Source: an uncultured Phycisphaerales bacterium
GTDB lineage: Bacteria; Planctomycetota; Phycisphaerae; Tepidisphaerales; Tepidisphaeraceae
Assembly: GCA_963758525.1 (NCBI GenBank)
Contig: CAVWVQ010000003.1
Span: forward strand, 1,184,001-1,248,000
DNA: 64,000 bases
Direction: 5' to 3'
The notes under the pieces are model-generated. The model was given only the letters and a program-made list of their open reading frames with translations, ran no database searches and had not been told where the DNA came from. Each line of letters opens with the position of its first letter. Position 1 is the first letter of the stretch. Both the position numbers and the translations under genes were made by a program. Shown here piece by piece: positions 20,101 to 36,375 of this stretch.

Positions 20101-21161
20101 TCGGAGCGCAGCGCGCCGCTGTCGTCATACGCCGGGATGAGGGTGGGAGCGCTCGCCAGCGCGTCTTTCAATCGATCGTTGGTGTTGAACGTATCGAAGT
20201 TGGCCGCCTGATCTCCTGACACGAGCAGATCGAAGAGATCGATGTTGGTCGGAAAGAAATTACCCGGCAGCACCGTTCCCGCGTCGTATGGCTTCCAAGC
20301 GATGGCGGCATTGATCGCGGCGGCGTTATCGACGATGCGCACGCCGCCGTAATACGTCACGCCGTTGATTTGGCCAATGGGAAGCCGGAACAACCCGGCG
20401 TCGGCGATCCCGTCGCCGTCGGCGTCCGCCGCGAGAACCGTGTAGGTGGTCGTCGTCGGTGGATTGCCGGCGGGAACTCCGGACGTGGTTTGCTGAAAGT
20501 CAAACGCGGGATACGTCACATTTTGCGCCCCCCCGCCGCCGCTCACCGACCAGGACAGGCTCGTCGGGGACATCTGCGAATCCGTCGGGTAGGTCTGCGA
20601 ACGAACATGATAAGTATTGGTTGGCGGGGTGGGATGGGTGATGCCGGTTCCCGCAGTATTAACGTATGGCGTCTCAAACGTCTCATACGTCTGTTTGCTT
20701 GGGAGCGACGTGACGAAATTCCACAACGGGCGATTCCCTAACGCGACCGGGAGCGTCGGATATTGAGCCGTTGGATACCGATCGGCGATGAATCCGCTCT
20801 GCGGATTGCCCGGATAATCGGAGACCGCGTAGGCATTAGGCGTGCTGGGCGACGTCGTCGGATAGTGGAAGACCGGCGTGTTCGGCGCGGCGGCGGTGGT
20901 GCCGAAGACAGAGGCGGCGACGCCGGACTGCGTGATGTTTTCGACACCCTGCAGAAGCAAATCGATTTCGGTGTTGAACGAGTTTTGCTGCGAGGAGTAG
21001 CGGTCGGTCTGAGCGGTGTTGATGTAGGCAGTCCCCAGCAGTGCCAGCAGTACGAGCAGCGCAACGACGAGAATCAGGACCGACCCGGGCCGCGATCGGC
21101 GCAGGCGCTGATCGAACCGGTCGAACATTCGCAATCGTCTGACGGGGATTCGCGATTTCAT
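17184..21161 (-). CDS. Giant PilX/GspK-like minor pilin (~1325 aa) with CBM5/12-like and lamin-tail-like modules
   Basis: RPG/SVLILVVALL N-terminus lacking E5; AWDNTLKYNFGDWV...YW; FITEVYAN...VELYNP; GRININTA; ITTRSDSFTAY. Start at ATG 21161 with GGAG. Confidence 0.7.
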   Translation of the reverse strand: MKSRIPVRRLRMFDRFDQRLRRSRPGSVLILVVALLVLLALLGTAYINTAQTDRYSSQQNSFNTEIDLLLQGVENITQSGVAASVFGTTAAAPNTPVFHYPTTSPSTPNAYAVSDYPGNPQSGFIADRYPTAQYPTLPVALGNRPLWNFVTSLPSKQTYETFETPYVNTAGTGITHPTPPTNTYHVRSQTYPTDSQMSPTSLSWSVSGGGGAQNVTYPAFDFQQTTSGVPAGNPPTTTTYTVLAADADGDGIADAGLFRLPIGQINGVTYYGGVRIVDNAAAINAAIAWKPYDAGTVLPGNFFPTNIDLFDLLVSGDQAANFDTFNTNDRLKDALASAPTLIPAYDDSGALRSDFSFATKYEAFWMQLGRRLGNPGYNTATDKFLALPTSEMQTMAYRFVLHNPSGQSSSALEKDLPNSCFAGTPSSPYSPSNWLNWAETNFDFANAAATVPLRSMLVTQNGVSNFTFSKLPARGAWDNTLKYNFGDWVTFTDNAYTDPVSHAVETVTRSYVCMQQNTGNSPQTGVSTAYWEPQSWSSGPTKASANTATFGQLWPAYYSAMTDAPLTATSLGTTLGMTAMFKPSIRTVNYPASNFPWEISGQGNGTPGFPQMQLCAALAAINTLQLRTPSPNPGTTAPLSKTISITDANGTPAYNITVYGSAPQPFITEVYANTHDGGDPTMAYVAVELYNPYPFDIPLNGWQLATIKRPGTGLNQLTVTSLPSTVGAGTTSWATTGPVVPKNGFIVLASSKTPPAAISGLPTATVGGSPALIELPDLASALDSELVLLRPVSATPGTPPAFFTGGGTATVPVDAYDFTGLPQTDADPGHEWHYIRPSDPSFGKAWHFVYPGPIYNGNTGPMSPRQAGTYATVGSNTSPQTTTLASLGKMDPSTLITPTASESSYIDRPLQINNTSFPGPNMATTSANLFPFGGFARNVDLLQVTFIGAYQVTSLDNTKLYELNSLPSDSALANDAPENQDPHAVTSIEFGRENVGRFCPIHWADTVDATGKPVSPTEIDATLTSPPWDDFIYPFVPTTAAPTAPVYWPTPTQYYWTQRLFDYVTVQSPQDDYLPDVDPAAYPATPAPKPVANVSSTVANAQLSNTPPSATEETVPVHGRININTANWRVLATLPFVDGVQFGASPNTAAQEAEQIAQSIVYYRDVDDKTVANPMPPATPGHPHGAFQSIFELNNVPISVPGPLPQGTLIRTVLSDTPTTNVLLNVPGQHASNVDGDLSPNSATAGADQVYGDFENQNLALNRISNLITTRSDSFTAYVIVQGWRNAGTSSPELVAQRRGAFIIDRSTITPTNNTQPGITNVPTN

Positions 21162-21217
21162 TGCATTGTCTCCGAAGCGACACTCAGGCTTCATCAATAC
21201 GCCTTCTGTCTCGACTT

Positions 21218-21316
21218 CCCCCTCCCCTGGTACTTCGGGGAGGGCAGGGGTGGGGGCGCTGAGTGCTCGCCAGCGAGCCCCCACCCTAACCCTCCCCCGG
21301 AGTACCAGGGGAGGGG
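21218..21316. repeat. Family A inverted doublet (MITE/REPIN-like)
   Basis: CCCCTCCCCTGGTACTTCGGGGAGGG...CCCTCCCCCGGAGTACCAGGGGAGGGG. Confidence 0.85.
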
Positions 21317-21370
21317 ACAAGAGCTTGGGGCGCTCGACACTGTCGGGCCGGGGGCCGTTTGCTGATGCAT

Positions 21371-22900
21371 TTACTGTTGCGCTCCCAGGTCGATGACATA
21401 TTCATACGTCTGCGGCGTCGCCAACCGTCCGGACGGATCATCCAGCGACAGCGTGATGCGAAGCATGCGTGGCAGGCTCGATCCTTGGCCGGTGCCGACG
21501 GGCCACATGGAATTCTCTGATCCCCACGAACAAAACAACTGTGCGTTGTTGTCGAGACTTCCGGGAACGGCGTAGTTCGTATTGGGCGCGAAGAGCCAGG
21601 ACGGGAATTCCCATGGTGGGAAGGACGCGGTAGAAGGTGCCTGAAGGCCCCCGCCACCATCAGGTTGTGGAGTTTTTTCCACATCGCGGAGGGGCACGAC
21701 ATCGTGCTTGGCGTCGATAGCGCCATCGCCGTCCGTGTCGCGCGGAAAGCCGTACCAGCGGATCTTCCTCTGTCCATTGATGACCATAAAATCGACCTGG
21801 CCATCGCCCTGTATCGCGGTCACGGCACCGTCACCGGCTTGGCCGGGTGTGTTTGTTTGGGTGAGATAGTCGCCGGCATATTCGACGATGAACTGCGAGC
21901 AGTGATTCAGAAAGATCGGCGCGACGCCTGCCGTCGTCGCGGCGCTGAGCGGCTTGACCGGGAACGGGTCGGCCTGATAGCGGGACACTGGTTGAGTTGA
22001 AGGACCCGCGAATGCCGCCGGAGCCGTCAGCATCATCGTCGATCGGAGCGCCGGAGTGTTGAACACATTAAATGAGCTGGCGGAGGCTGCGACGATGTCG
22101 TAGCGCGATGAGTAAATAGGAACATTTTTGCCATCACTGCTCAGGGCACCATAGCCGAGCGGGTTGTTGCTGGTGGTGGGCGGGTTCGGCGAAACGACAG
22201 GTGGCGCCGTGATGTAGACATCGGTTCCGCTGCTGGCGCTTGGCACCAGCAACATCGCGATACGGCCGAGAATCCATTCGGACGCGTAACGGTTGTTATC
22301 GTTGTGCTGTGAACCGTTGTCCGGGTCGCCGGGACCGAACCAAGCCGCATTGCTACCGGCAGGAACCTTCGCCTGATCATTGTTTGGCAGCACCAGGTGG
22401 CCATACCAGATGAATGCATTGGAACTGGTGGTCGGAGAGACGAAGGTGCCGTCATTGCCCGTCTGCCGCGGATACAGATCGCCGCTGGCAAAAAACCCGA
22501 GCGTGTCGAGCCGGAAGTTGCGGTTGCTGGGAAGGACATTGGAAACCGGCTGCGCGGTTCCGTTAATCGTAATCATATTAGGCACGCCGCTCGGCTCGTT
22601 GGCGAAGTCCTGTGCCGTGTTAAACGCGTAGGTCCGCTGCGAGGTGATCAGCAGCGCCGGCTGCGAGACGGTCATTGCGTTGTGGATATCTGTATAGAAA
22701 CTGAAATGTGCCGTGCGCTCGTCGCGCGTGATGGCGCTGAATGCCTGGCCCGCGCCCACGGTTTGGGCGCCGATCTTGAACACCTCGTTGATGCCCAGAA
22801 TCAGCACCAGCGCGATGGCGATCGACACCATCAGCTCGACCATGGTGAAGGCGGACCGGCGTAGCGGCAGGGGAGAAATAGTCTGTCTGATGCGAGCCAT
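21371..22900 (-). CDS. Prepilin-type protein (PilW/PulJ-like)
   Basis: RRSA/FTMVELMVSIAI class III signal. Confidence 0.85.
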   Translation of the reverse strand: MARIRQTISPLPLRRSAFTMVELMVSIAIALVLILGINEVFKIGAQTVGAGQAFSAITRDERTAHFSFYTDIHNAMTVSQPALLITSQRTYAFNTAQDFANEPSGVPNMITINGTAQPVSNVLPSNRNFRLDTLGFFASGDLYPRQTGNDGTFVSPTTSSNAFIWYGHLVLPNNDQAKVPAGSNAAWFGPGDPDNGSQHNDNNRYASEWILGRIAMLLVPSASSGTDVYITAPPVVSPNPPTTSNNPLGYGALSSDGKNVPIYSSRYDIVAASASSFNVFNTPALRSTMMLTAPAAFAGPSTQPVSRYQADPFPVKPLSAATTAGVAPIFLNHCSQFIVEYAGDYLTQTNTPGQAGDGAVTAIQGDGQVDFMVINGQRKIRWYGFPRDTDGDGAIDAKHDVVPLRDVEKTPQPDGGGGLQAPSTASFPPWEFPSWLFAPNTNYAVPGSLDNNAQLFCSWGSENSMWPVGTGQGSSLPRMLRITLSLDDPSGRLATPQTYEYVIDLGAQQ

Positions 22901-22909
22901 GCAAGTCCT

Positions 22910-24145
22910 TCAATGCAGTGCGAGGAACGTGGTATAGGCGGCGACATCCTGAACCGGGCCCGAATATGTTGTCGTGGCCGCGTTGGAATCGGAATAGCCG
23001 GCGCCGATGACCATGACGGTTGAATTCGCGCCGGGGGCGTACGTGGCGTTGGCCATGTCGTTCCCAGGCGCCAGGTTCCAGATGTTGCCGCTCGAATTGG
23101 TTCCGAGGCGGTAAATCCAGCCGTTGGTGTTGCCGGCATTTGAGTCGTTGGCGATGACGACAAAAGCGCCGTCGGCGAGGCATCCGAGATTGCTCTGGCC
23201 GGCCACGTCGGCGAACGTGAATTGCTGCTGCGTCGACGTGTTCGTGACAGTTGTCACAGTCAGCGGGCGGGCTTCCAGCGAGGGAATGCCGTTCGTCCGG
23301 GCCGCCAGATCGTTGGAATCGTAGAAGCTGCGGTTCCGCGCCTGCACGCCGATCAGAATCACCTGCACGTACGGCTGCCCATTGACCTGGCGGTACAACG
23401 GGATCCACGCATAGCGCGGATCGCTGGGCAAAATCAGGTTCCCGCTGATGAGCGGCCAGAGCGTGGTATTGGTCATCACCGGCTCGCCCGCCACCGCGGT
23501 TGGCCCGATCGGATGAACGTACCCGTCAGGCATCGTCGCGCTGGCGACCGCGCCGGCGGGTGTGTACCAGTAGCTCTGCGTGTTGTATTTCGCCAGGTAC
23601 GAAACCCCGCCCTTGGCGATCGTCGCGGCTGTCGTCTCTTCACTGGTGGCCTGCGTCTGCTTCAGTGCCACTGGAAAAATCGCCGCGATCAGGATGAAAC
23701 CGATGCCGAGAATCAGCACCGCGAAGAGAATTTCGGTAAAGGTGAATCCGCGGCGAGTGCGCGATCTGAGCGGCAAAGACGAAGAGCCGCGAAGGCGCCC
23801 GCCACGGCCGGCAAGCTGCGGCGCGAAGGCAGACGCGAAGCGGGGGGAAGGAACATTTCCGCGCAGTTGAGAAATCTCCGGAGCGACATGACTGGTTCGC
23901 TTCTCTCGTTTTTTCGTCACACGGTGCACTTTGAGAATGCACGACGGGGTCAAACCGTTCACGAAAAGTGCGCGGCGACTCTCCCAATTAGTGCTTCTTC
24001 TTCGCGTCTGCCTTCGCGCCGCAGCTTGCCGGCCGTGGCGGGCGCCTTCGCGGCTCTTCGCATTTTGCAGTTCGGCCGAACGGTGCGCCGCCGCCGGCGT
24101 TTCACGACGGGTGCTGGTGCGAAGTTGATGATTGCTGCCGGGCAT
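22910..24145 (-). CDS. Prepilin-type protein (PilV/PulI-like) with a long repeat-containing leader
   Basis: RRG/FTFTEILFAVLI. In-frame ATG 24145 lies 7 nt after the upstream stop, and the frame is open through the MITE. Confidence 0.8.
   Translation of the reverse strand: MPGSNHQLRTSTRRETPAAAHRSAELQNAKSREGARHGRQAAARRQTRRRSTNWESRRALFVNGLTPSCILKVHRVTKKREKRTSHVAPEISQLRGNVPSPRFASAFAPQLAGRGGRLRGSSSLPLRSRTRRGFTFTEILFAVLILGIGFILIAAIFPVALKQTQATSEETTAATIAKGGVSYLAKYNTQSYWYTPAGAVASATMPDGYVHPIGPTAVAGEPVMTNTTLWPLISGNLILPSDPRYAWIPLYRQVNGQPYVQVILIGVQARNRSFYDSNDLAARTNGIPSLEARPLTVTTVTNTSTQQQFTFADVAGQSNLGCLADGAFVVIANDSNAGNTNGWIYRLGTNSSGNIWNLAPGNDMANATYAPGANSTVMVIGAGYSDSNAATTTYSGPVQDVAAYTTFLALH
23780..24060. 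mobile_element. MITE-like element with perfect 61-bp terminal inverted repeats
   Basis: 23780-23840 is the exact reverse complement of 24000-24060; 159-bp spacer. Confidence 0.8.
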
Positions 24146-24152
24146 TCTGGTG

Positions 24153-25361
24153 TTACTCCGCGCGAATGAGCGTGCCGTTGTAGCGGTTGATGAGGATTGG
24201 AGCGCTGTTGGTGTCGAGCCAGACTTCCTCGTCGGCCTCGGTGGGAGGCGACGCCGCGGGCGTGCTCGCCACGCCGTAGCCGTTCGGTACACCAGTCGGA
24301 TCGAGCAGGTCATCTCCGATCGTTCCGCCGAAGTTGTTGAACGCTTCACGGTCAAAAAGCACGAACCCGAATTGGGAGGAAAGAGCCGCGGGCGGCGTGT
24401 AATCGACCTGCGGCGTCGGCATGACGGCGTTGGACGGAATCCCGAAAATATATTGGGCAAGGTTCGACGGGCTTGTCGAGTTGGACTGATGCAGCTTCAG
24501 GCCGTAGGTCTTGCTGGTGAGCCGGCCGTTCCCGTCGAAGAGAATCGCGCCGCCAATGCGCACCGCGGCATTGCCGCCGGCGCTGGTGATGGTGTCCGCG
24601 GCGCCGGGAGACGGGAGCGGGTTGAAGCCGATGTAGCGGTCCGGCAGGATTTGGGCGGTGTTCCAGTAGGTCGCATTGGGAGGTTCATTGGCGGTGCTGG
24701 ATACATTGGTAAGCTTGCAACTATAGAAGCTTCCGCCCACCTGCACGAGCGCGTTCTGTGCATAGGTCTGTCCCGCGGCCCAGGCGGGCGGCACCACGCC
24801 TCCATTGTTGATGACCTGCAGCCCGATCCCCGATGGCAGTTGCAGAAATTCACGGTCGGGAACGATGTCGAGATAGTACGTGGCCGGAGTCGCGGTCAGC
24901 GGGGACTCGTCGCTCGAGTCGAGCGGCACGGATTGAACGATCGACGCATTGATGCGATCGGTTGCCGGATCAAGCCAGAAGAGCACGCCGTGCACTTCCT
25001 GCAGGCCGACCGCCTCCTCGCGCGCCCGCGTGATCAGCGCCGACAGCGTGTTGTACCCCGCGTCGATGCTCCGCGAGCCAGTGAGGCCGCGGATCGCCGG
25101 GATCGCCATCGCGACCAGGAGGATGATGATTCCGATGACGACCACCATTTCCGTCAGCGTGAAGGCGCGGGAAGGCACGAAGGCACGGACGCACGGAGGC
25201 ACGGAGGGTGACGAAGGGTCTGGGGAAGGCACGGAGGCACGGAGGCACGGAGGCACGGAGGGTGAGGAAGGGTGAGGACGCGAAGAGAAGCGAAGCGACA
25301 AAAATCCCCTTCCTTCCCTTCGTGCCTTGGTGCCTTCGTGCGTTTGTGCCTGCGTTTCCAT
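24153..25361 (-). CDS. Prepilin-type protein (FimT/PulH-like) with CBM5/12-like module
   Basis: SRA/FTLTEMVVVIG; AWAAGQTYAQNALVQVGGSFYSC...YW. Confidence 0.85.
   Translation of the reverse strand: METQAQTHEGTKARREGRGFLSLRFSSRPHPSSPSVPPCLRASVPSPDPSSPSVPPCVRAFVPSRAFTLTEMVVVIGIIILLVAMAIPAIRGLTGSRSIDAGYNTLSALITRAREEAVGLQEVHGVLFWLDPATDRINASIVQSVPLDSSDESPLTATPATYYLDIVPDREFLQLPSGIGLQVINNGGVVPPAWAAGQTYAQNALVQVGGSFYSCKLTNVSSTANEPPNATYWNTAQILPDRYIGFNPLPSPGAADTITSAGGNAAVRIGGAILFDGNGRLTSKTYGLKLHQSNSTSPSNLAQYIFGIPSNAVMPTPQVDYTPPAALSSQFGFVLFDREAFNNFGGTIGDDLLDPTGVPNGYGVASTPAASPPTEADEEVWLDTNSAPILINRYNGTLIRAE
25171..25345. repeat. Family B element inside a prepilin leader
   Basis: GGCACGGA/GGCACGAA arrays encoding SVPPCLRASVP. 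Confidence 0.85.
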
Positions 25362-25363
25362 TG

Positions 25364-26044
25364 TTAATCTTTGGAATAGATGTTGTCGTCGCCCTTGGCC
25401 TGGGTGGCGCCGGTGCGCGCCCCGAAATCACCGTCAGGGCCTGCTGAGGCGAAGAAGGGGCGGTTGGCCTTCCCGGCCACGGTGATCTGCGTCGGGGTAT
25501 TTCCGTTTCCAGTTGTAACGTAGACGATCATTCCACCCCGCGGCACATAGATGATCGGATTGCCCCACCCGTCAAGAAGAACTGGAATCGTGTACGGGTT
25601 GCCGTTTGAGTCTTTCAGAATCTTGCTGGTTGGAAAAGCGGCGATCGCTTTCGCGTTGTTGGGAACGCGCATCAGCGACGCCATCGCGCCCTGGGTCTGT
25701 TGCACGATAAAGCCGGAGCGGTCTGCCTGCCCCGACGTGACATCACCGATTTCCCAAGCCTGTCCGGCCGGCCCAGTGATCCCAATACCAATGACCGGCT
25801 GAGGGAAACTCTTCATGAGGACCGGGTCGTAGTATGAATACGTCGGCAGCGCATTGCTCCCCGCCGTCGCCTCCAATTCCGCGAGCATCGAGTTGAGGTT
25901 ATCGAGCGTGACTTTCGTCTGATTCGCCGCGGCCGACCGCTCGACCACCTGGAAGCCGATCACAGCCAGCGAGATCAGGATCAGGATGACCCCGATCACA
26001 ACCAGCACTTCCAGCAGGGTAAAGGCGCTTCGCCGACGTTGCAC
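25364..26044 (-). CDS. Prepilin-type protein (PulG-like)
   Basis: RRSA/FTLLEVLVVIG; LDGWGNPIIY; FFASAGPDG. GAGGAG RBS before GTG. Confidence 0.85.
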   Translation of the reverse strand: MQRRRSAFTLLEVLVVIGVILILISLAVIGFQVVERSAAANQTKVTLDNLNSMLAELEATAGSNALPTYSYYDPVLMKSFPQPVIGIGITGPAGQAWEIGDVTSGQADRSGFIVQQTQGAMASLMRVPNNAKAIAAFPTSKILKDSNGNPYTIPVLLDGWGNPIIYVPRGGMIVYVTTGNGNTPTQITVAGKANRPFFASAGPDGDFGARTGATQAKGDDNIYSKD

Positions 26045-26094
26045 GATGATCAACTCCTCGAGGGTATTGTTCGGGATGTCCAGCCGCCGAGAGA

Positions 26095-26240
26095 AGGTGA
26101 TTGGTGATTGGAACGTGACGGAAACGCAGAAAATTGCACGGCAGGAGGCGATTTGTCACGTTCCACGTTCCAATCACCTCTTCGGGGCTTTGTCACGTTC
26201 CACGTTCCAATCACCTCTTCGGGGCACGTTTCAATCACCT
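26095..26240. repeat. Family G repeats (TCACGTTCCAATCACC), inverted plus tandem
   Basis: GGTGATTGGAACGTGA followed by three TCACGTTCC(AATCACC)-type units. The same motif occurs at 59735, 59945 and 60160. Confidence 0.8.
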
Positions 26241-27203
26241 TTTTCCGACGCCCTCCCGCGGCTCGGGTCCCTTCTCATAACTGTACAAATTGTCATCCTG
26301 CGTCAGATAACGCCGGTCGGGGCCGGCGGAAAAGAAGAATGAGCGGTCCTGGGGGGCGATTCCGATCTCACGATGCATCGACGGCATGAACACAATCGGC
26401 GAGCCCCAGGCGTCGCTGAGCGTCGCCTCGTTGTAGATCGAATCAGGCAGGCCGCCGAACAGGTCGGAGCCGCTGCCGGCTTCAAGGCGCAATGCCGCGA
26501 CGAAGTCGCGATTGTTCTCGAACGCCCGCTGCTGCAGCGTTGCCTCATTGAGATGATCGGGGGCATTGGCAAACGGCGCGATCGCGGGCGTCCGGCCGTC
26601 GTGATGCAGCCGGTATTGGGCCAGCAGCACGTCGCACTGATAGAGCAACTGCTTGGTGAGCTTGACGGACGAGTCGTTGCGCACGTATCGCGCCAGATCG
26701 ACCATCAGCCCCAGCACAATCACCAGGCCGGCCACAGTCGTGAGCATTTCCAGGAGGGTGAAGCCGCGGCGGCTGGGCTTGACGTCCCCTGCTGCGCCCT
26801 CTCCCGGTACTCCGGGAGAGGGTTGGGGTGAGGGTGATTTCGAGGTCGAAAGTCTCTCGCACTCGCGAAGGATTTCTTCCAGCACCGGGTCCAGGTGCAG
26901 TCGTACATCCGTGTTGGTGAAACGGATGACGTGCGATCCGCCACGCACCAGGCGCTGTGTGCTGCGAGCGTCGTACTCAGCCTGCTCGGCATGAGAGTCT
27001 CCATCCAGCTCAACGATGAGCCCGGCTTGCGCAGTAAAAATCGGCGATGTAGGGCCGTTGCGGCGACTGACGCTTGAACTTGAATCCATCAAGCTGCCGG
27101 TCGCGCAGACGTTTCCACAAAATCGATTCGGCCGGCGCGGCGCGTGCCGCATCTGGCGGACCCGCTCGAGAAGATCGGCATGTGTGAGGGAATTCTTCGG
27201 CAC
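26235..27203 (-). CDS. DUF559 endonuclease-like domain fused in frame to a PulG-like prepilin
   Basis: LIVELDGDSH...YDAR...VIRFTN (DUF559), with AESILWKRLRDRQLDGFKFKRQ...YIADFYC in a shifted frame. Continues SRRG/FTLLEML...DAWGSPI...SAGPD. Confidence 0.8.
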   Translation of the reverse strand: MPKNSLTHADLLERVRQMRHAPRRPNRFCGNVCATGSLMDSSSSVSRRNGPTSPIFTAQAGLIVELDGDSHAEQAEYDARSTQRLVRGGSHVIRFTNTDVRLHLDPVLEEILRECERLSTSKSPSPQPSPGVPGEGAAGDVKPSRRGFTLLEMLTTVAGLVIVLGLMVDLARYVRNDSSVKLTKQLLYQCDVLLAQYRLHHDGRTPAIAPFANAPDHLNEATLQQRAFENNRDFVAALRLEAGSGSDLFGGLPDSIYNEATLSDAWGSPIVFMPSMHREIGIAPQDRSFFFSAGPDRRYLTQDDNLYSYEKGPEPREGVGKR

Positions 27204-27269
27204 GGGGGCGGTTTTGTACGCTCGAAAGGCACCCTCACCCTAACCCTCTCCCCGAGTACCGGGAGAGGG
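26797..27269. mobile_element. DUF559 gene bounded by 40-bp inverted family A repeats
   Basis: 26797-26836 versus the reverse complement of 27230-27269: 38/40 identical. Confidence 0.75.
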
Positions 27270-27293
27270 GACCAGAGGGAAGCTCGAGGCGCG

Positions 27294-28151
27294 TCACTGA
27301 TTGAAATTGGTTACGTCGTCGGTCTTCCCGTTGGAATCGTAGCCCCAGAGTTCATCCGAGCCGGCGCTCCAGAGGAGGTAGGGCGCTGTCGTCGCGGGAG
27401 TTTCACCAAGCGTCGGATCAATTGCGCCATCGGGCACACCAGGCGACGCGGTGCTGGTGGTGTCGCCGAGGATTCGCTGCATGTCGACAAGCAGAAATGG
27501 ATTGTTTGTCTTGATGCTGTTCTGAGAATAATCGTACATCGGAACCACCGTGGCAGGCGTTGGTGCCAGGGGTGTTTGCCCTACGAAAGCGCCCGCAGCA
27601 TTAATACTGGCAACCGGGTTCGCCCGGAAGTAAAGGTACGGTGTGCCGCGGACATCGTTGATCGTCGAGTCCAAATTGCTGGTCCCGGTGATGCCGAATT
27701 TATCCGGCGGAATGTACGGACCGTAGGTTTGTCCCTGTGTTCCGCGGATGCGGAAGCCGGGACCGTCGGCGCCGTCTCCGCTGATGGTCAGCGGCGCGGC
27801 CGACGGAGGAGCTGGAGTCGATATTGCCGGGCCCGGAGCAACCAGCGCCCAGCAGAGCGCGACGGCTCCCAGTCGATCTTTCTCAGTTCCGAGTATCGTG
27901 ACCGGATTGTTCACGGACATATCCACCGGCGGATAGTCCTTGAAATCCTTCCGATACTCTTCGAGCCCCTGCGCAATGACCTGCAGATCGAGTGCGATTC
28001 GCGTGCGCGTTGCGCTGCGGCGAGCCCGCAGCAGCACCGGCAGCGTGATGCCGATGACGATGATAATAATAGTGACCGACACCAGCAGCTCGATCAGCGT
28101 AAAGCCGTTGCGCTGGCGCAATCGGAAGTTAATTGCTGGAGATGATGTCAT
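27294..28151 (-). CDS. Prepilin-type protein (PulG-like)
   Basis: RNG/FTLIELLVSV; YLLWSAGSDELWG. Confidence 0.88.
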   Translation of the reverse strand: MTSSPAINFRLRQRNGFTLIELLVSVTIIIIVIGITLPVLLRARRSATRTRIALDLQVIAQGLEEYRKDFKDYPPVDMSVNNPVTILGTEKDRLGAVALCWALVAPGPAISTPAPPSAAPLTISGDGADGPGFRIRGTQGQTYGPYIPPDKFGITGTSNLDSTINDVRGTPYLYFRANPVASINAAGAFVGQTPLAPTPATVVPMYDYSQNSIKTNNPFLLVDMQRILGDTTSTASPGVPDGAIDPTLGETPATTAPYLLWSAGSDELWGYDSNGKTDDVTNFNQ

Positions 28152-29265
28152 CTTTGGTTCCGAAGATTCGATCAGCTCCAGCGGAGATCAGCAGGAACGT
28201 GTCTTTGCCCTTGGGGGTGGGCTCGCCCGTTGCCGGAAGGGTGAAGGCCGGGTTGGCAATGTAAACGTCCGCATAATCGTACGTATACGTAGTGCCCGTC
28301 GGCGGATTCGGACTTGGGAGCGGAAAATCCGTCTGGCTCACGCCGGTCGTGACGGTGGGCGACGGTACCGCGACGGGGCTAAAAGAGTAGGGGAACAAAT
28401 GCTGGAAATTGTATTGAAAGCTGGCCGCCGTGCCCGTTCCTTCGTACAGCATTTGGGTGGCGCCGACGCGGGCTCGCAGGTAGAGGATCGGGCCGAAATT
28501 GTAGTTTCCATTGCCGCTGATGGGGCTGCCGGGCGGGCCGGTGATGTTTCCGGGAATGTGATCGAGATATTCCGGGATGTACGAGTCGCCCGTCCCAAAT
28601 TCCTGGTATCCGTGCGTCGGATCGCCCGGTGGCAATTCCTCCGGCTTGGGGGTGAAGTATGCGGTTGTCTGCTTCTGCATATTTAGCAGTACATTGAGCA
28701 CCTGCGGCCCCTTGCCGATGGACGTGAAATCATAAAGCCAATTTTGCACCGCTGGAGGCGTCGCCGTCGTATAGGAGAGATAGACTCCGCCGCTTAAACC
28801 AAGAACGAGATTCTCACTTGAGGTGATATCTGTTACCGCTGGAGTACCGGTGATGTTCTCCAGCAGTGCGAACGTGGGGGGGATTTGCGTTGGCGGAACC
28901 GGCGCACTCCCCGCGACTGCGGCCGCGGCGGCCGCGTCAATGTCGTTTTGCGCAATCGGCCCCGGATACGCACGAAAATCCTGATAATACGCCTGGCACG
29001 CGGCGCCGATCGTCGCCATCTCCTGCTTGGTGCTGGTGACGAACGCGGCCTTGCGGACGCTGGCGACGACCGGGAGCAGAATCCCGATGAGGATCACGAT
29101 GATGCCGATGGTGACCAGCAATTCGATGAGGGTAAAACCGGGGCGGGAAAGGCACGAAGGCACGGAGGCACGAAGACACGAAGGGAAGGAAGGGGATTGG
29201 GATGGGAAAGGCGCGGAGGCACGCGGAGAAGAACGGTGAAGCGACGGACGATCGCGCAACGTCAT
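28129..29265 (-). CDS. Prepilin-type protein (PulG-like) with family B repeats in its leader
   Basis: RPG/FTLIELLVTIG; FLLISAGADRIFGT. Confidence 0.88.
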   Translation of the reverse strand: MTLRDRPSLHRSSPRASAPFPSQSPSFPSCLRASVPSCLSRPGFTLIELLVTIGIIVILIGILLPVVASVRKAAFVTSTKQEMATIGAACQAYYQDFRAYPGPIAQNDIDAAAAAAVAGSAPVPPTQIPPTFALLENITGTPAVTDITSSENLVLGLSGGVYLSYTTATPPAVQNWLYDFTSIGKGPQVLNVLLNMQKQTTAYFTPKPEELPPGDPTHGYQEFGTGDSYIPEYLDHIPGNITGPPGSPISGNGNYNFGPILYLRARVGATQMLYEGTGTAASFQYNFQHLFPYSFSPVAVPSPTVTTGVSQTDFPLPSPNPPTGTTYTYDYADVYIANPAFTLPATGEPTPKGKDTFLLISAGADRIFGTKDDIISSN

Positions 29266-29275
29266 TGGGGGCCGC

Positions 29276-30556
29276 TCATTTCTTGGTTGCCTGGGAGCTG
29301 ATGCCGTTGATCAGCGTGATCATGGGCATGAACAGGGCGATGACGATGAAGCCGACGATGACGCCCAGGACGACGACCATGACCGGTTCAAGAATGCTGA
29401 TGAGGGAGCCGACGAGCACGTCGACGTCGTTGTCGTAGTTGTCGGCGACTTTGAGGAGCATCTTGTCGAGATCGCCGGTCTCTTCGCCGACGTCGATCAT
29501 ATTGACCACGATGGCGTCGCACACCTTGGTGGCGCGGAGCGGGTCGGCCATCGATTCACCTTCGCGGATGGCGTCGTGCACCTTGAGCAGGGCGCGGGCG
29601 TAGACCTCGTTGCCGCTGGTTTCCTTGGTGATCATGATCGCGTCGAGAATCGGGACGCCGGCGCTGATGAGCGTTCCCAGCGTTCGCGTGAAACGGCCGA
29701 TCGTCGACTTGGAGATGATCATCCCGAGGATGGGGATTTTGGTGGCGACCAGATCGACGGCGTATCTGCCGCCGTCGCTCATCCGCAGCAGCTTGAGCAC
29801 GCCGGAAGCGACAAACGGAAACGCGATCAGGTAGGCCCACCCGTATTGGTTGGCGAAGAAGTGGCTCAGCAGCAGCAGAAACTGGGTGGGGGCGGGCAAT
29901 TCGAGCTTGAAGTCCTTGAAGATTCCCTCGAACTTGGGAATGACGAAGATCATGATGACGGTCACCACGCCCACGGCGATGCTGATGACCACCGCCGGAT
30001 AGATCATCGCGCCGATGACCTTTTTCTTGAGCTTGGCGGCTTTTTCCATGAAGTCGGCGAGGCGCGAGAGGATGAGATCGAGCACGCCGCCGATTTCCCC
30101 GGCGTTGATCATGTTGACATAGAGCTTGTCAAACGCCTTGGGGTACTTGGACATGGCGTCGGAGAGGGTGCCGCCCCCTTCGACCTCGTCGGAGACGCCG
30201 CCGATGATCGCCTTGAGCAGGCCGGGCTTTTGTTGGGATTCGAGAATCTGCAGCGAGCGAAGAATCGGCAGGCCCGCGTCCTGCAGCGTGGAAAGCTGGC
30301 GGGTGAAGCCGACGAGCTGCTTCTGCGGCACGCCGCCGAAGGAGATCGGCATCTTGCGGGTTTTGACCGGTTCGGCCTCGGCAACCGCGCCCTTCTTGCC
30401 GGCCTTTTTCTTCCCGGCGGCTTTTTCCCGGACCTTGGTCGGGAAGAAGCCCTTGCTGCGAATGCGCTGAATCGCCTCCTCCGACGAGGCGGCTTCGATT
30501 TCGTCCTTCACTTCCTGTCCGGAAGTGTTCATCGCTTCAAATGAAAACGTCGGCAT
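29276..30556 (-). CDS. pilC: Type IV pilus/T2SS inner-membrane platform protein (PilC/GspF)
   Basis: FTRQLSTLQDAGLPI, AGEIGGVLD, GEETGDLD, LEPVM. Confidence 0.93.
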   Translation of the reverse strand: MPTFSFEAMNTSGQEVKDEIEAASSEEAIQRIRSKGFFPTKVREKAAGKKKAGKKGAVAEAEPVKTRKMPISFGGVPQKQLVGFTRQLSTLQDAGLPILRSLQILESQQKPGLLKAIIGGVSDEVEGGGTLSDAMSKYPKAFDKLYVNMINAGEIGGVLDLILSRLADFMEKAAKLKKKVIGAMIYPAVVISIAVGVVTVIMIFVIPKFEGIFKDFKLELPAPTQFLLLLSHFFANQYGWAYLIAFPFVASGVLKLLRMSDGGRYAVDLVATKIPILGMIISKSTIGRFTRTLGTLISAGVPILDAIMITKETSGNEVYARALLKVHDAIREGESMADPLRATKVCDAIVVNMIDVGEETGDLDKMLLKVADNYDNDVDVLVGSLISILEPVMVVVLGVIVGFIVIALFMPMITLINGISSQATKK

Positions 30557-30640
30557 GGCGAGGTCTCCGCGTACAGCCCCACAACATTATTCGTCGTGTC
30601 CAGCAGCCGGGGGAAGCGGACATTACGCTGCCGGCGGCAA

Positions 30641-30935
30641 AACCAGAATGACGAAACCAGCATCCCGAATCAAACAATCAAACCAGAATGACGAAACCAG
30701 AAAGCAGAATCAAACCAGAATGACGAATGACCGAATGAAGAGTGAACGCACAATTGGCGGCCTCGCCCCCCGGTTGTGGAGCCCCGATCGCCGCCTGGGT
30801 CGGCTGCACTGTAGATTGCGGTCTCTTCATTCGGTCATTCGTCATTCTGGTTTCTGGTTTCGTCATTCGGACTTCCGCCCGAAGCGGCGGCGTCACTCTG
30901 ATTTCGAACTTCGTCATTCGGACTTCCGCCCGAAA
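30641..30935. repeat. Family C element (GAATGACGAA/TTCGTCATTC inverted arms)
   Basis: Same arms at 43981, 49110 and 55617. Confidence 0.8.
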
Positions 30936-30942
30936 TGGCGGC

Positions 30943-32898
30943 TCATCCTTCTTCCATAATCGTTTCCCGAACCACTTCCTCGATGCTGGTGACTCCGTCG
31001 TAGATCGCCATCAGGCCGCTTTCGCGCAAGGTCCGCATGCCACGCTTCTTGGATTCCAGCCGCAAGACCTGCGTGCTGGCGTGGCGGACGACCATGTCGC
31101 GCATGTCGTCGTCGAGAATCATGATCTCGTACAGACCCATTCGGCCCTTGTAGCCGGTGTTGTTGCACAGTTCGCAGCCGCGTCCGTAATAGAGCTTGCG
31201 ACCGGCGACGATTTCGGGGGTCAGTTCCAGTTCCATCAATTGCTCGGGCGTGGGGGTGTACTCGGTTTTGCAACCAGCGCACAACCGCCGGACCAGCCGC
31301 TGCGCGACGACGCCTTCCAGGGTGGCGGTCACGAGGAACGGCTCGAGACCCAGATCGAGCAGGCGGGCGATGGTCGAGGGGGCGTCGTTGGTGTGCAGCG
31401 TGCTGAAAACCAGGTGGCCGGTGAGCGACGCCTGCACGGCAATGGTGGCGGTTTCCTTGTCGCGGATTTCGCCGATCAGCACCGTGTCGGGGTCCTGACG
31501 CAGCATCGCCCGAAGGATGCGGGCAAACGTCATCTCAATATCGGGCTTGATCTGGCACTGAATGATGCCGTCGATGTCATACTCGACGGGATCCTCGGCG
31601 GTGATCAGCTTCGAGGAGATCTCGTTCAGCTCGTTCAGGGCGGAATAGAGCGTTGTCGTCTTGCCCGAACCCGTCGGCCCGGTGACCAGCACGATTCCAT
31701 TTGGCTTGTGAATGAGCTCGCGAACCATCGACAGCTCTTCATCGCGCATCCCGAGCTTGTCGAGACTGAGGCTCACGTTGCTGCGGTCCAGCACGCGCAT
31801 GACGACGGACTCGCCGAACATGGTCGGCAGCACGCTGACGCGCAAGTCGATCTGCTGGTTGTTCACCATCAGCTCAATGCGCCCGTCCTGCGGGACGCGC
31901 CGCTCGGCAATGTCGAGATTGGCCATGACCTTGATGCGCGAGCTGATGGCCGGGGCGATGTGCGCCGGCGGCGGCATCATTTCGTACAGAACGCCGTCGA
32001 TGCGATAGCGCATCTTGTATTCGACCTCGAACGGCTCGAAGTGAATGTCGGAGGCCTTGTCCTTGATGGCCTGCAACAGCACCAGATTGATGAGCTTGCG
32101 CACCGGATTGGAGTCGGCGGCGGCCTTGATGCTCTCCAGATCCATCGACTCGCCGCGACCCTTGAGGTCTTTGAGCGTGTCGTCGGTCTGAAGCTCTCCG
32201 AGGATTTCCGAGATGTTCTCCGCGGCGGCCTGGTAGTGCTTGGCGATGAGCCGATCAATTTCGGTGGCGTCGGCGAGCACCACCTCGACCTCATAGCCCA
32301 TCAGCGCCCGCAGATCGTCCAGGGCGCGGAAGTTTTCATGGCTGGCCATCGCGACGGTCAGCTTCTTGGCCTCCTTGTTGTAGGAGATCGGCAGCACCTT
32401 ATTGGTCGTGGCGATCTGTGGCGGCACCGCCGCGATCGCGTCCGCCTCGATCGTGCGCGATTCGAGGCTGACCAGTTCGTAGCCGCGCTGCGCGGCCAGG
32501 CCGATGTTCAGATCCGTTTCCCTGACATAGCCCAGATCGATGAGAATCCGGCCGAGGACGCCTCCCTTGCTCTTTTGGAATTCCAGCGCCTCGGTGACCT
32601 GCTCGCGGTTGATCTTTCCCATCTTCGTCAGCACACGGCCAATGGGACGCCCCTTGAGCTCGCTGATGGCCGGCATCTGACCCGGGGGGCGGCTGGCCCC
32701 GCCGACGGATGGCTTCGACAGGGGAATCGGCGGCTTGCCGGCGCTGCTGGGACCGGGAATGCCCGGCGTTGGCGGGCGCAGCCCCGGCGTCGCAGGCTTC
32801 TGGCCGGGAATGACAGGCCTTGCGGAGGGAAGGCGAGGCTTGCCGTCATCGGGTGTTCCCGAAGGCGGCGGAGCGGAAGGCGGGATCATTCGAGACAT
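30943..32898 (-). CDS. pilB: PilB/GspE assembly ATPase with MshEN-like N-terminus
   Basis: [28 protein letters not shown], zinc-binding CxxC pairs, Pro-rich N-terminal tail. Confidence 0.93.
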   Translation of the reverse strand: MSRMIPPSAPPPSGTPDDGKPRLPSARPVIPGQKPATPGLRPPTPGIPGPSSAGKPPIPLSKPSVGGASRPPGQMPAISELKGRPIGRVLTKMGKINREQVTEALEFQKSKGGVLGRILIDLGYVRETDLNIGLAAQRGYELVSLESRTIEADAIAAVPPQIATTNKVLPISYNKEAKKLTVAMASHENFRALDDLRALMGYEVEVVLADATEIDRLIAKHYQAAAENISEILGELQTDDTLKDLKGRGESMDLESIKAAADSNPVRKLINLVLLQAIKDKASDIHFEPFEVEYKMRYRIDGVLYEMMPPPAHIAPAISSRIKVMANLDIAERRVPQDGRIELMVNNQQIDLRVSVLPTMFGESVVMRVLDRSNVSLSLDKLGMRDEELSMVRELIHKPNGIVLVTGPTGSGKTTTLYSALNELNEISSKLITAEDPVEYDIDGIIQCQIKPDIEMTFARILRAMLRQDPDTVLIGEIRDKETATIAVQASLTGHLVFSTLHTNDAPSTIARLLDLGLEPFLVTATLEGVVAQRLVRRLCAGCKTEYTPTPEQLMELELTPEIVAGRKLYYGRGCELCNNTGYKGRMGLYEIMILDDDMRDMVVRHASTQVLRLESKKRGMRTLRESGLMAIYDGVTSIEEVVRETIMEEG

Positions 32899-33103
32899 TC
32901 AGGCTCCCTCATCGAATTCGAACTCTTTGCTCAATCTTGCCACGCAGTTGCGTCCGCATCAATCAAAAACCGGAGTTTTCGCCACGGCGTTCCGGTAAGC
33001 TCGTTGTGGTGCGGGCTTCCAGCCTGCGATCGCAGCCGTGCAAACGCAGTTTGCTCCTGCTTTGCCGGAATTTTCTCCCGCGCCCGTCACGTCTTTTTGC
33101 CCA

Positions 33104-34375
33104 TCATGCGAGCGCGGTTGGCGGCAATCTGCGCCTGCCGCTCCGCTTCACTTTGTCCCGCGCCAGGAGGCGCTGCACCGGCGGACCCGCGGCAGGAGGC
33201 TTGGCCGCCCCGGCGGCGCCATCGCCGGAGGGTTTGGCGCTCGGAGGAGCGCCGCCGGCGCCGTCCGACGGGTCGGGCAGGGAGTCGTCGGGCTTTTCCA
33301 CGGCGAATCCCGCGCGATTCATCTTGTCGACCATGTTTCCGGGGTTGCGGCTCTTGTCGATCGCTTCCTCGGCGCTGATCCGCCCCGCCGCGAAATGGCC
33401 GAACAGATTGTCATCCAGCAACTGCATCCCGTAGCGCTTGCCGGTCTGAATCTCCGAATCGATGCGGAAGGCTTTGTTCTCTCGAATCAGATTCTGAATG
33501 CCGGGGGTGACGTACATAAATTCGTAGGCCGCCACCATTCCTTCGGTGTCGACGCGGGGGCACAGCGCCTGGCTCAGCACCGCCAGCAGGTTGCCGGCCA
33601 ACTGCACGCGGATCTGCTCCTGCTGATCGGTGGGAAAGGCGTCGATCAATCGGTTGATGGTGGATGCCGCGCCGGCGGTGTGCAACGTGCCAAAGACAAG
33701 GTGGCCGGTTTCGGCGGCCGTCACCGCTGCGGAGATCGTCGCCAGGTCGCGCATTTCGCCCACCAGCATGCAATCGGGATCCTGCCGCAACGCGCGGCGC
33801 AGCGCCTCGGCGAAGCTCGGAACGTCCACTCCGATCTCGCGCTGCACCACCACGCTCTTTTTGTGCTTGTGGTAGTACTCGACCGGGTCTTCCATCGTGA
33901 TGATGTGACGCTCGAAGTTGGTGTTGATGTAGTCGATCATCGACGCCAGCGTCGTGGTCTTCCCCGAACCGGTCGGCCCGGTCACCAGGAACAACCCGCG
34001 CGGACGCCGGCAGATCTGCTCGGCCATCTTCGGCAGCCCGATTTGCTCAAACGTCAGCAGCTTGCTGGGAATGCGGCGCAGCACCAGGCTCGCCATCCCC
34101 TTCTGCTTGAAGATCGACACGCGGAAGCGCGCCTCTTCCCCGAAGGCAAAGCCGAAGTCGCCCGAGCCGGTCTCTTCAAATTCCTGCTGAATGCGCTCGG
34201 GCGTGATCGACTTCATCAGCGCCGCGGTATCCTCGGCTTCGAGAACCTTGGTCTGCAACTCGCGCATCCCGCCATGCATGCGCAGCACCGGCGGCTTGCC
34301 GACGGCAAGGTGCAGGTCGCTGGCGCTCTTGCGGATCACCGTGTCCAGCAGACGATCGATTTGTACTGTTGCCAT
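33104..34375 (-). CDS. pilT: PilT retraction ATPase
   Basis: [48 protein letters not shown]. Confidence 0.93.
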   Translation of the reverse strand: MATVQIDRLLDTVIRKSASDLHLAVGKPPVLRMHGGMRELQTKVLEAEDTAALMKSITPERIQQEFEETGSGDFGFAFGEEARFRVSIFKQKGMASLVLRRIPSKLLTFEQIGLPKMAEQICRRPRGLFLVTGPTGSGKTTTLASMIDYINTNFERHIITMEDPVEYYHKHKKSVVVQREIGVDVPSFAEALRRALRQDPDCMLVGEMRDLATISAAVTAAETGHLVFGTLHTAGAASTINRLIDAFPTDQQEQIRVQLAGNLLAVLSQALCPRVDTEGMVAAYEFMYVTPGIQNLIRENKAFRIDSEIQTGKRYGMQLLDDNLFGHFAAGRISAEEAIDKSRNPGNMVDKMNRAGFAVEKPDDSLPDPSDGAGGAPPSAKPSGDGAAGAAKPPAAGPPVQRLLARDKVKRSGRRRLPPTALA

Positions 34376-34381
34376 AAAACC

Positions 34382-36161
34382 TCAGCCTGCGATTCCCTCC
34401 ACCTGCGCGACTTTCACGATTTCTTCGGGGGTGGTGATCCCGCGGAGCACTTTGAGCCGCCCGTCCTGCAGCAGCGACTTCATGCCGCTCGCGAGGGCGG
34501 CTTTGCGAATTTTGTTTCCGGCGGCCCGTTCGAACGCGAGGGTGCGGAGTTCGTGATTCATGACCATCAGCTCGAACACCCCGCGCCGGCCGCGGAATCC
34601 GATGCCGCCGCATTCGTCGCAGCCATGCGGCTTGCAGAGGTTCTGGCCGACCAGATCCGACGGCTTGATGCCGCAGAGTCTGAGCCATTTCGGATCGGGA
34701 TTGGGATCGGGCACCTTGCACTTGTTGCACAGAATCCGGACCAGCCGCTGCGCCAGCACCGCCTGAATCGAGCTGGCGACGAGGAACGGCTTCACCCCCA
34801 TGTCGATGAGTCGGGTGATCGCTCCGGGGGCGTCGTTGGTGTGAAGCGTGCTGAACACCAGATGGCCCGTCAGAGCCGCCTGGATCGCGACCTCGGCGAC
34901 TTCCAGATCGCGAATTTCGCCGACGAGAATGACATTGGGAGCCTGACGCAGCATCGCGCAGAATCTTGGAGAAGCTCAGTCCGATGACTTCGCGCACCTG
35001 GCATTGGTTGATGCCGGCGAAGTTATATTCGACCGGATCTTCGGCGGTGATGATCTTGCGATCGGGCCGGTTGAGCTCATTCAGCGCGGCGTAGAGCGTT
35101 GTGGTCTTGCCCGACCCGGTCGGACCCGTCACCAGAAAGATTCCGTTGGGCCGTTTGATGATCTTCTGAAACGCCTTGTTGTCTTCTTCCTCGAACCCCA
35201 GATTCACGATGCCGATGCGCACGGCATCGGGACGCAGGATACGCAGCACGACCGATTCACCGTGATATGCCGGCAGCGTGCTGGCGCGGAAGTCGATCTG
35301 CTGCTTGTCGACCACCAGCTTGATGCGGCCGTCCTGCGGAAGCCGCTTCTCCGCGATGTCGATGCCGGCCATGATTTTCAGCCGGCTGATCAGCGGGCCT
35401 TTCATGCGCAGGGGAATGCGGTCGCGCTCGACGCATTCGCCGTCGATTCGATATCGCACGCGAATGCGGTCCTTCATCGGCTCGATGTGAATATCCGATG
35501 CGCGGTTGCGGACGGCCTCGGCGATCATCGCCTGCACCAGCTTGATGATGGGCGCCTGCGTGGCGTCGGCCGGCCCGTCCCCTTCGCCGATGCCGGAGAT
35601 GTCGATCGACTTGTCGATGGAGCGGTCGACCGATTTATCGACGGTGCGATCGACGGTCTTGTCGAGCGTGCGATCCATCGTCTTGTCAAATGTCTTGTCC
35701 CGGGTCTTGTCGATCGTGTTGGCAGCCGTCGTTCCCAGAATCTGATCGAGCAGCGACTTGATTTTCGAGCGCGGCGCCAGCGACGTGCGGATTTCCTTGT
35801 GGAGCCGGAAGCGGAGAATATCGAGCATCTCCAGATCCAGCGGATCGTGAACGACGATCCGCAGCCGGCCGTTCTCCATGCCCAGCGGCAGGATGAGGTA
35901 CTTGCGCATCAAATCGTCTGGAATCAGATTGATCGCGTCGGTGGGGACCGAGGTCTTGTCCAGCTCGACATAATCCAGCCCGTGCTGGGCGGCCAGCGCC
36001 TTGAAGACATTTCCCTCGGTGCAGACCTTCAGATCGACCAGCGCTTCGCCAATGCGCATGCCCTGCTTTTTGCCGTGCTCCAGCGCCTTGGCGACGTCCT
36101 TGGGATTGGCAAAACCCCATTCAATCAGCAACTCACCGAGTTTTTTTTGTTGACGGGCCAT
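34382..36161 (-). CDS. Second PilB/GspE ATPase (frameshift near 34955)
   Basis: KKLGELL MshEN-like start and GPTGSGKTT, continuing as [22 protein letters not shown]. Confidence 0.9.
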
Positions 36162-36375
36162 AATAGTGGGCGGCAAAGAGCGGACTCGGGCTCAAGGTCA
36201 GGGCGGGAACAATCCTTTCGGTCGCAAATCGTCCAGGGGCCCGATTTCAACCCTCATTGCGCCGCGGCGGCGAATCATAGTGTACCGGCTTGCCGTCCGC
36301 CGCGACAAGCGCATTCTGCCAAACCCGCGGCTCAATTCCGAATCTGCCCGCTTCGATCAATTATAGCACCGTCGC

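Follow-up and report, generated by a model that had tools for sequence, protein, structure and literature searches.

A DUF559 hairpin cassette ahead of a pilin gene, and in one open frame with it, in an uncultured Phycisphaerales bacterium

The genome of an uncultured Phycisphaerales bacterium carries, within the 64,000-nucleotide stretch analysed here (the window; contig CAVWVQ010000003.1, positions 1,184,001 to 1,248,000), a cassette consisting of a DUF559 gene between two inverted, palindromic arms. All features described in the window lie on its minus strand. The cassette sits between two pilin genes and abuts the leader codons of the downstream one, and a single open reading frame (ORF) leads from the DUF559 remnant through the arm nearest the pilin into the predicted cleavage site of the pilin itself.

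The fused frame and the broken DUF559 gene

The ORF (27203..26235, minus strand; 322 amino acids) runs uninterrupted from a GTG at 27203 to a stop at 26235. Its residues 57-115 match PF04480 at 48.2 bits (E 1.1e-12), above the curated cut-off of 20.6, and the inverted arms are identical at 38 of 40 positions between 26797-26836 and 27230-27269. Both results confirm what an earlier interpretation of the letters alone (the sequence-only reading) had proposed, namely a DUF559-like gene between 40-bp inverted repeats, and the continuity of the frame from GTG 27203 to 26235 agrees with its claim of a stop-free passage through the downstream repeat into SRRG/FTLLE (the slash marks the predicted cleavage point). 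Extended to 26778-26836 and 27230-27288, the arms are 81% complementary, and a long-range mRNA stem is predicted to be very stable (z -7.25). In the mRNA the proximal arm (26778..26836; palindrome 26797-26822), which the pilin frame reads as SPSPQPSPGVPGEG, is predicted to form a G+C-rich hairpin of 11 bp. Within the distal, upstream arm (27230..27288; palindrome 27244-27269), the triplet at 27242-27240, which is TGG in most copies of the repeat, is an in-frame TAG that closes the pilin frame further upstream. Eighteen codons ahead of this TAG, and also in the pilin frame, lies the TGA (27296-27294) of the upstream pilin-like gene of the same operon (27294..28151, minus strand).

The DUF559 domain is not encoded in one uninterrupted frame. 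The pilin frame encodes the N-terminal part of the remnant (27139..27203; LLERVRQMRHAP) and its C-terminal part (26856..27035; profile positions 50-109), and a different frame encodes the middle part (27025..27138; profile positions 15-52), all three on the minus strand, with the separate pieces in the two frames scoring 50 and 41.6 bits. When the codons are read against close homologues, 1 base appears to be missing near 27135-27140 and 2 bases near 27030. The losses sum to -3, one codon net, and the 35 shifted codons, though scrambled, contain no stop when read in the pilin frame. The recovery of profile pieces in two frames fits the compensating shifts (-1 near 27135, -2 near 27030) that had been said to preserve the fusion frame. 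The stretches VELDGDSH and IRFTN are kept and match the invariant columns E55, D57, G58, H61 and R84 of an alignment of 25 family sequences (too diverse for the locus scan, for which an alignment of 5 sequences was used instead), and GTG 27203-27201 aligns with the ATG of an intact paralogue in the same genome (L001) and with the Met at which close homologues begin. Judged from its sequence, the gene looks healthy apart from the two shifts, and the nuclease of this copy is most likely dead; decayed or partial copies, with stops or partial matches, are common in the DUF559 family elsewhere among bacteria. With the nuclease most likely dead, nothing active would be released from the pilin-site copy, and the earlier suggestion that a nuclease is freed there finds no support in a copy broken by two shifts.

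At the predicted cleavage site the fused frame reads ...SPSPQPSPGVPGEGAAGDVKPSRRG/FTLLEML. The mature pilin-like protein (26235..26762, minus strand; 175 amino acids plus a stop) begins FTLLEMLTTVAGLVIVLGLMV, and the junction SRRG/FTLLEMLTTVAGLVIVLGLMV presents the G/F-T-L-x-E site, Glu+5 and a hydrophobic helix; orthologues are named prepilin-type or PulG-like by their sources. Pfam N_methyl scores 15.5 bits at the pilin against a cut-off of 21.2, and DUF559 and N_methyl are the only Pfam families at the fused ORF, which has no Hint or splicing domain. What remains of the leader, AAGDVKPSRRG (26763..26795, minus strand), is without a start codon and ends at the predicted G/F site between 26763 and 26762. 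The 12 codons from arm to site (GGC GCA GCA GGG GAC GTC AAG CCC AGC CGC CGC GGC) include no ATG, GTG, TTG, CTG or ATN, as the sequence-only reading had noticed in finding no start just before the site, and the 40 codons ahead of G/F include no ATG, GTG or TTG. The nearest canonical in-frame start, GTG 26885-26883, lies in the C-terminal part of the DUF559 remnant; counted back from Phe+1, in-frame starts are found at 41 (this GTG at 26885), 62, 109, 110, 130 and 147 codons (GTG 27203). The public gene call (P0001) is already fused: it is 284 amino acids long, starts at ATG 27089 and carries PF04480.

The pilin in related genomes and in its operon

The pilin was matched in 31 of the 41 genomes searched, a count that takes in the window's own genome (G000) and the unpublished G004. 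Element-free orthologues have starts of their own: ATG at -6 in a genome of the same genus (L008, genome G001), TTG at -18 in genome G002 (L009), and GTG at -7 and ATG at -9 in L083. Short leaders are also seen in P0003 (MPPAGSG/F), P0004 (VERRG/F) and P0005 (MPQRRRA/F), which are 81-84% identical. Neither L083 nor L084 has an arm at the pilin.

In the closest relative, L082 (85% identity), the same pilin site is occupied by a complete hairpin pair without a gene. Its junction reads GEG-EIRRRRRG/F with no canonical start after the arm, and 125 codons of its frame can be read without a stop, as far back as an ATG that immediately follows the TGA of the upstream pilin. In this doublet (L082:2365-2480) the left arm contains two in-frame GTG codons that follow GGGAGAGGG at Shine-Dalgarno distance, and the arm itself might give the downstream gene a ribosome site and a start. 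In two further orthologues the residues that separate the arm peptide from the site include no M, V or L: P0181 (GEG-ARRRG/F), in which the tail resembles a DUF559 C-terminus, and P0174 (GEGERTPPCHRDA/F). With P0002 (GEG-VIRLRRG/F) undecided, four of the five repeat-bearing pilin orthologues are without a proximal canonical start. The recurrence of arm-bearing pilins in relatives indicates that the arm has long been part of the pilin 5' end in a sub-clade. The same site thus holds a cargo-less pair in L082 and a DUF559-bearing pair in the window, in different species.

The pilin is under purifying selection. Its 175 codons contain no stop and no shift, and the ratio of non-synonymous to synonymous substitution rates (dN/dS) is 0.17 between G000 and L082, 0.18 between G000 and L083 and 0.16 between L082 and L083. 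Non-synonymous divergence (dN) to L083 is 0.112 for G000 and for L082 alike.

The fused gene belongs to a pilus or secretion operon in which T2SSE-family ATPase genes and a T2SSF gene are followed by seven genes with prepilin-type N-termini. A PilC/GspF-like gene and three T2SSE-family ATPase genes head the row of pilin genes (29276..36176, minus strand), the T2SSF (PilC/GspF) gene occupying 29276-30556 on the minus strand. A scan of 25900-28300 revealed no promoter-like site and no minus-strand terminator-like site. Elsewhere in the operon, the PilB-like T2SSE ATPase gene (34382-36176, minus strand) has a frame shift near 34954, outside any homopolymer, with profile positions 4-206 in one frame and 207-369 in another; it reflects either an assembly error or a decaying gene. 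A second repeat family lies in the 5' regions of neighbouring pilin genes (25180-25330 and 29130-29240, minus strand) and reads PSCLRASVPS or THEGTKARR depending on strand and frame. The likely GTG starts of these neighbouring pilins fall inside it, so that the apparent long leaders of the two pilins, having proximal starts in another repeat, are not parallel cases. A third repeat (26086-26250), between two pilin genes, consists of 37-nt tandem units and an inverted partner, GTCACGTTCCACGTTCCAATCACC, and overlaps the final codons of the pilin ORF.

A coding-compatible repeat family read inside host proteins

The arms are not a chance similarity; they belong to a multicopy family. Genome-wide, 106 palindromes were found by a strict pattern and 116 by a looser one, with 104 arm units. 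In 26 cases two arms face each other 50-100 nt apart and form gene-less hairpin doublets of about 115 nt. Only one pair is 415 nt apart, the pilin-site cassette, and in an alignment of doublets its DUF559 gene occupies the position of the loop. The flanks of the 26 pairs are variable, mutually complementary extensions in which no clear target-site duplication was seen, and no transposase was identified for the family. A second DUF559 cassette in the genome, the intact L001, has its own 37-nt arms (92% complementary and 406 nt apart), and its frame, too, stays open across the downstream arm and ends at the first stop beyond it.

The arm unit is stop-free in five of six frames, with 78-88 of 88 units open per such frame. 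Read-through is therefore the default and is to be expected, and a match with the pilin frame has about a one-in-three chance; the missing pilin start is the non-trivial part of the arrangement. A preference of the repeat for pilin leaders was considered and rejected, as only one of the 54 class-III-signal-like motifs in the genome has a repeat within 300 nt upstream.

Copies of the family are read in frame inside other proteins. In the same genome gene-less copies occur in valS (L065) and hypF (L077), each with Pfam matches on both sides. The valS gene (G000 contig C2:365058-368401, minus strand) contains an in-frame hairpin doublet together with three to four tandem 22-amino-acid repeats, all in the stretch from ARMVMAG to the KMSKS region; further upstream the gene has another in-frame repeat, of HGGTEARRHEG type, and there is a frame break near C2:366887. 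The hypF gene (G000 contig C3:2856175-2858460, plus strand) has one palindromic unit in its YrdC-like domain, where the Pfam match is split in two.

Full-length DUF559 genes are found in similar positions in related genomes, in frame inside a MurF-like ligase, HsdM (in two genera) and a DUF4130-UDG protein, and ahead of TsaC, with arm-derived Pro/Gly-rich peptides on both sides. Among 28 long relatives of the DUF559 protein P0267 are internal insertions, including those in IleRS, MnmG and RecG, and terminal fusions to MurB, TsaC, PrmC, DNA methylases and HsdR. In several phyla (L056, L045, L048, L057, P0273, P0287 and P0289) a full-length DUF559 domain, with arm peptides rich in Pro and Gly to either side, interrupts a catalytic domain. 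The interrupted hosts include MurF-like, HsdM, RecG (inside its DEAD domain), MnmG and IleRS proteins, none with a splicing domain, and in eight in-frame cases other than the pilin Pfam reports only DUF559, the overlapping nuclease family MTES_1575 and domains of the host. At 17 of 80 DUF559 loci drawn from species genomes of many phyla, at least 60 codons are open on both sides.

These hosts offer no protease site, which indicates that the general way of life of the cassette is translation within host proteins and not excision by a protease. A strategy built on a host protease, as the sequence-only reading had envisaged, is at odds with the occurrence of the family in frame inside cytoplasmic housekeeping proteins, and, for this DUF559 lineage, the search for other fusions of DUF559 to N_methyl was also unfavourable to it. 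None of the best 150 of 1651 matches in a library of 1.84 billion proteins spans both the DUF559 and the pilin halves, no class III motif occurs in the open frame of any of the 80 DUF559 loci, and none of the 28 long P0267 relatives carries PF07963, a Pfam-only count that is weak, N_methyl being a short motif often missed by precomputed Pfam. Nine of the 28, including three without a host domain, were read in sequence and show no class III motif. The element is widespread, and its insertion at the pilin amounts to one odd landing site rather than a dedicated strategy.

Production of the pilin and comparison with known systems

The single open frame, the lack of a start of the pilin's own, the purifying selection and the presence of Peptidase_A24 (2 matches in the genome) together favour, as the most economical explanation, a protein translated as a fusion and then stripped of its leader. 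We regard it as about an even prospect that translation of the pilin begins within the cassette and that a leader of 41-147 amino acids is then cut off by prepilin peptidase. Translation would begin at one of the cassette's in-frame start codons, the precursor would insert in the membrane with its long N-terminal part in the cytoplasm, and prepilin peptidase would trim it at G/F; the leader would be tolerated as a landing site because it is discarded. The summing of the two shifts to -3 and the 35 stop-free codons are expected if translation starts upstream of 27135. Otherwise the stop-free shifted stretch would, by our estimate, have about a 1-in-10 chance, which makes the agreement only some ten-fold better than chance. 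Of the earlier claim that the pilin operon expresses the element as a fusion, the part that concerns one open frame and no pilin start of its own has held, and the part that concerns release of a nuclease has found no support.

Several considerations weigh against translation from within the cassette. To our knowledge, no prepilin with a leader of more than 100 amino acids is processed. The nearest in-frame start is 28-40 codons upstream in about 10 of 36 orthologous loci, and 9 of the 54 class-III-like motifs in the genome have their nearest start more than 30 codons away. A 41-codon leader is therefore not extreme in the orthologue family, and start prediction is uncertain there generally. 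Strong hairpins could, from their predicted folds, hinder translation through the arm. The frame shift in the PilB-like gene means that the pilus cluster may be decaying. Conserved genes show frame breaks (valS, PilB-like and HSP70-like; 3 in the roughly 28 kb examined), which leaves single-base details of the assembly open to doubt, including the GTC 7 codons before Phe+1 (26781-26779). In the HSP70-like gene (G000 contig C3:4936470-4937269, plus strand) the profile matches in two overlapping pieces in different frames, a possible frame break. Short contigs over 26100-27500 from a read run that shares 0.05 of the sequence words contain the arms and a piece of the pilin only, at less than 95% likeness and in the cargo-less joined form; they represent other copies or other organisms and are thus uninformative on the pilin locus.

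A broader reading, which we think doubtful, is that prepilin leaders serve as safe harbours: a cassette would replace the pilin start, the giant leader would be removed by prepilin peptidase, and an intact copy would be released as a free cytoplasmic nuclease with the pilin unharmed. If true, such an arrangement would correspond functionally to an intein, but one that depends on a protease.

The strongest competitor of translation from within the cassette, although in our view an unlikely one, is that the pilin is silent. The insertion would have taken its start and left a young pseudogene in a decaying cluster, and the open frame would be a by-product of a stop-poor, G+C-rich repeat. The absence of a proximal start and the decay of DUF559 itself fit this explanation, as do the split PilB-like gene of the cluster and arms that are open in five of six frames, through which read-through needs no selection. 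Yet the 175-codon frame is intact, with a dN/dS of 0.17 and no excess of dN in the lineage of the window, and the start-less state accompanies intact pilins in L082, P0181 and P0174 too, which would require repeated recent inactivation. Furthermore, at the rate at which DUF559 has decayed (2 indels in about 400 nt), we estimate that about 2.7 would be expected in the 528 nt of the pilin, and 0 are seen.

Alternatively, the two shifts might be assembly errors, in which case an intact DUF559 would be fused to the pilin and an active nuclease released by prepilin peptidase. The remnant has no in-frame stop, keeps E-x-D-G..H and R-F-x-N and starts where its homologues do, and the assembly has frame breaks in valS, the PilB-like gene and the HSP70-like gene as well. 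At approximately one break per 9 kb, however, two errors within 110 nt would be very unlikely, and the 2-base loss sits outside any homopolymer. Moreover, many bacterial members of the family are decayed or partial, and no intact DUF559-pilin fusion turned up in the searches elsewhere. We consider this explanation quite improbable.

Very improbable is a non-canonical or internal pilin start near the site, for example at Met+7, with the cassette as an untranslated spacer acting at most as an RNA hairpin in the manner of REP elements. It is common in this DNA for hairpins to separate the genes of an operon, neighbouring pilin genes have other repeat families between them, and the predicted long-range stem is very stable; but no ATG, GTG, TTG, CTG or ATN occurs between the arm and G/F, a start at Met+7 would lose the cleavage site and Glu+5, and four related loci are without a canonical start at the same place. 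Inversion of the DUF559 segment by its arms, switching translation of the pilin on and off, is scarcely credible, although DUF559 proteins are 14-fold enriched among predicted targets of programmed inversion in a published screen (PMC9881135), since the genome has about 100 copies of these arms, most of them single or in pairs without a gene, and since a Pfam scan of the 12 ORFs of 17184-36176, with no dedicated recombinase search, found no recombinase. No alternative orientation was seen either, though there were no reads in which to look for one. That enrichment fits DUF559 genes being flanked by inverted repeats.

If the pilin is indeed made from a start inside the cassette, prepilin peptidases would accept leaders of 40-150 residues, including a former folded domain; the view of class III signal peptides would widen, and a natural design for cleavable fusions would be suggested. 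The locus also represents a clean natural experiment on a gene surviving the loss of its start codon to a mobile element, and it adds a new kind of landing site to a family of hairpin arms and DUF559 whose copies are translated within essential proteins of many phyla. For part of DUF559, a large family of unknown function, a selfish role is possible.

The fused pilin resembles ordinary type IV prepilins and the pseudopilins of type II secretion in its G/FTLLE site, Glu+5, hydrophobic helix and operon with PilB/PilT/PilC-type genes. It differs from them in that a short basic leader with a start codon of its own is missing, and in-frame starts occur only 41-147 codons upstream, in a mobile element. 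The element, for its part, is comparable to several known repeats. REP/REPIN-RAYT systems consist of hairpin doublets spread through a genome and a rarer protein-coding partner, a tyrosine transposase. The family described here likewise combines genome-wide hairpin doublets with a rarer coding partner, but that partner is a PD-(D/E)XK/Vsr-type DUF559 located inside the doublet, and the copies are coding-compatible. Rickettsia palindromic elements (RPEs), reportedly described by Ogata and colleagues in 2000, and intragenic miniature inverted-repeat transposable elements are, like the arms, short, stop-free, multicopy palindromes inserted in genes and translated with the host protein. The arm family differs from both in also having a cargo form, in which the loop of the hairpin pair is precisely where the DUF559 gene lies, and in the pilin case by residing in a cleavable leader instead of the mature protein.

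Inteins with homing endonucleases are also in-frame insertions of a selfish nuclease in conserved housekeeping genes, translated with the host; the DUF559 cassette, in contrast, has no Hint or splicing domain, and a host protease would be required to remove it, if it is removed at all, which could happen at the pilin site only. A closer parallel in fold is offered by Vsr-like homing endonucleases, which belong to the same nuclease fold group and are free-standing selfish genes lodged in host genes. PMC2677866 concerns such a family in 'fractured genes', and PMC3424549 places a group I intron homing endonuclease in one group with VSR, DUF559 and DUF2726. Compared with these enzymes, the DUF559 cassette, known from sequence alone, has no association with introns or split inteins, and its hairpin arms also occur as cargo-less pairs. 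A search of the literature, judged by titles or the beginnings of abstracts, returned no description of DUF559 hairpin cassettes or of pilin fusions. Taken together, the element is best described as an RPE-like, coding-compatible palindrome that carries a Vsr-like nuclease and is parked in a cleavable pilin leader, each of these kinds being known and their combination new.

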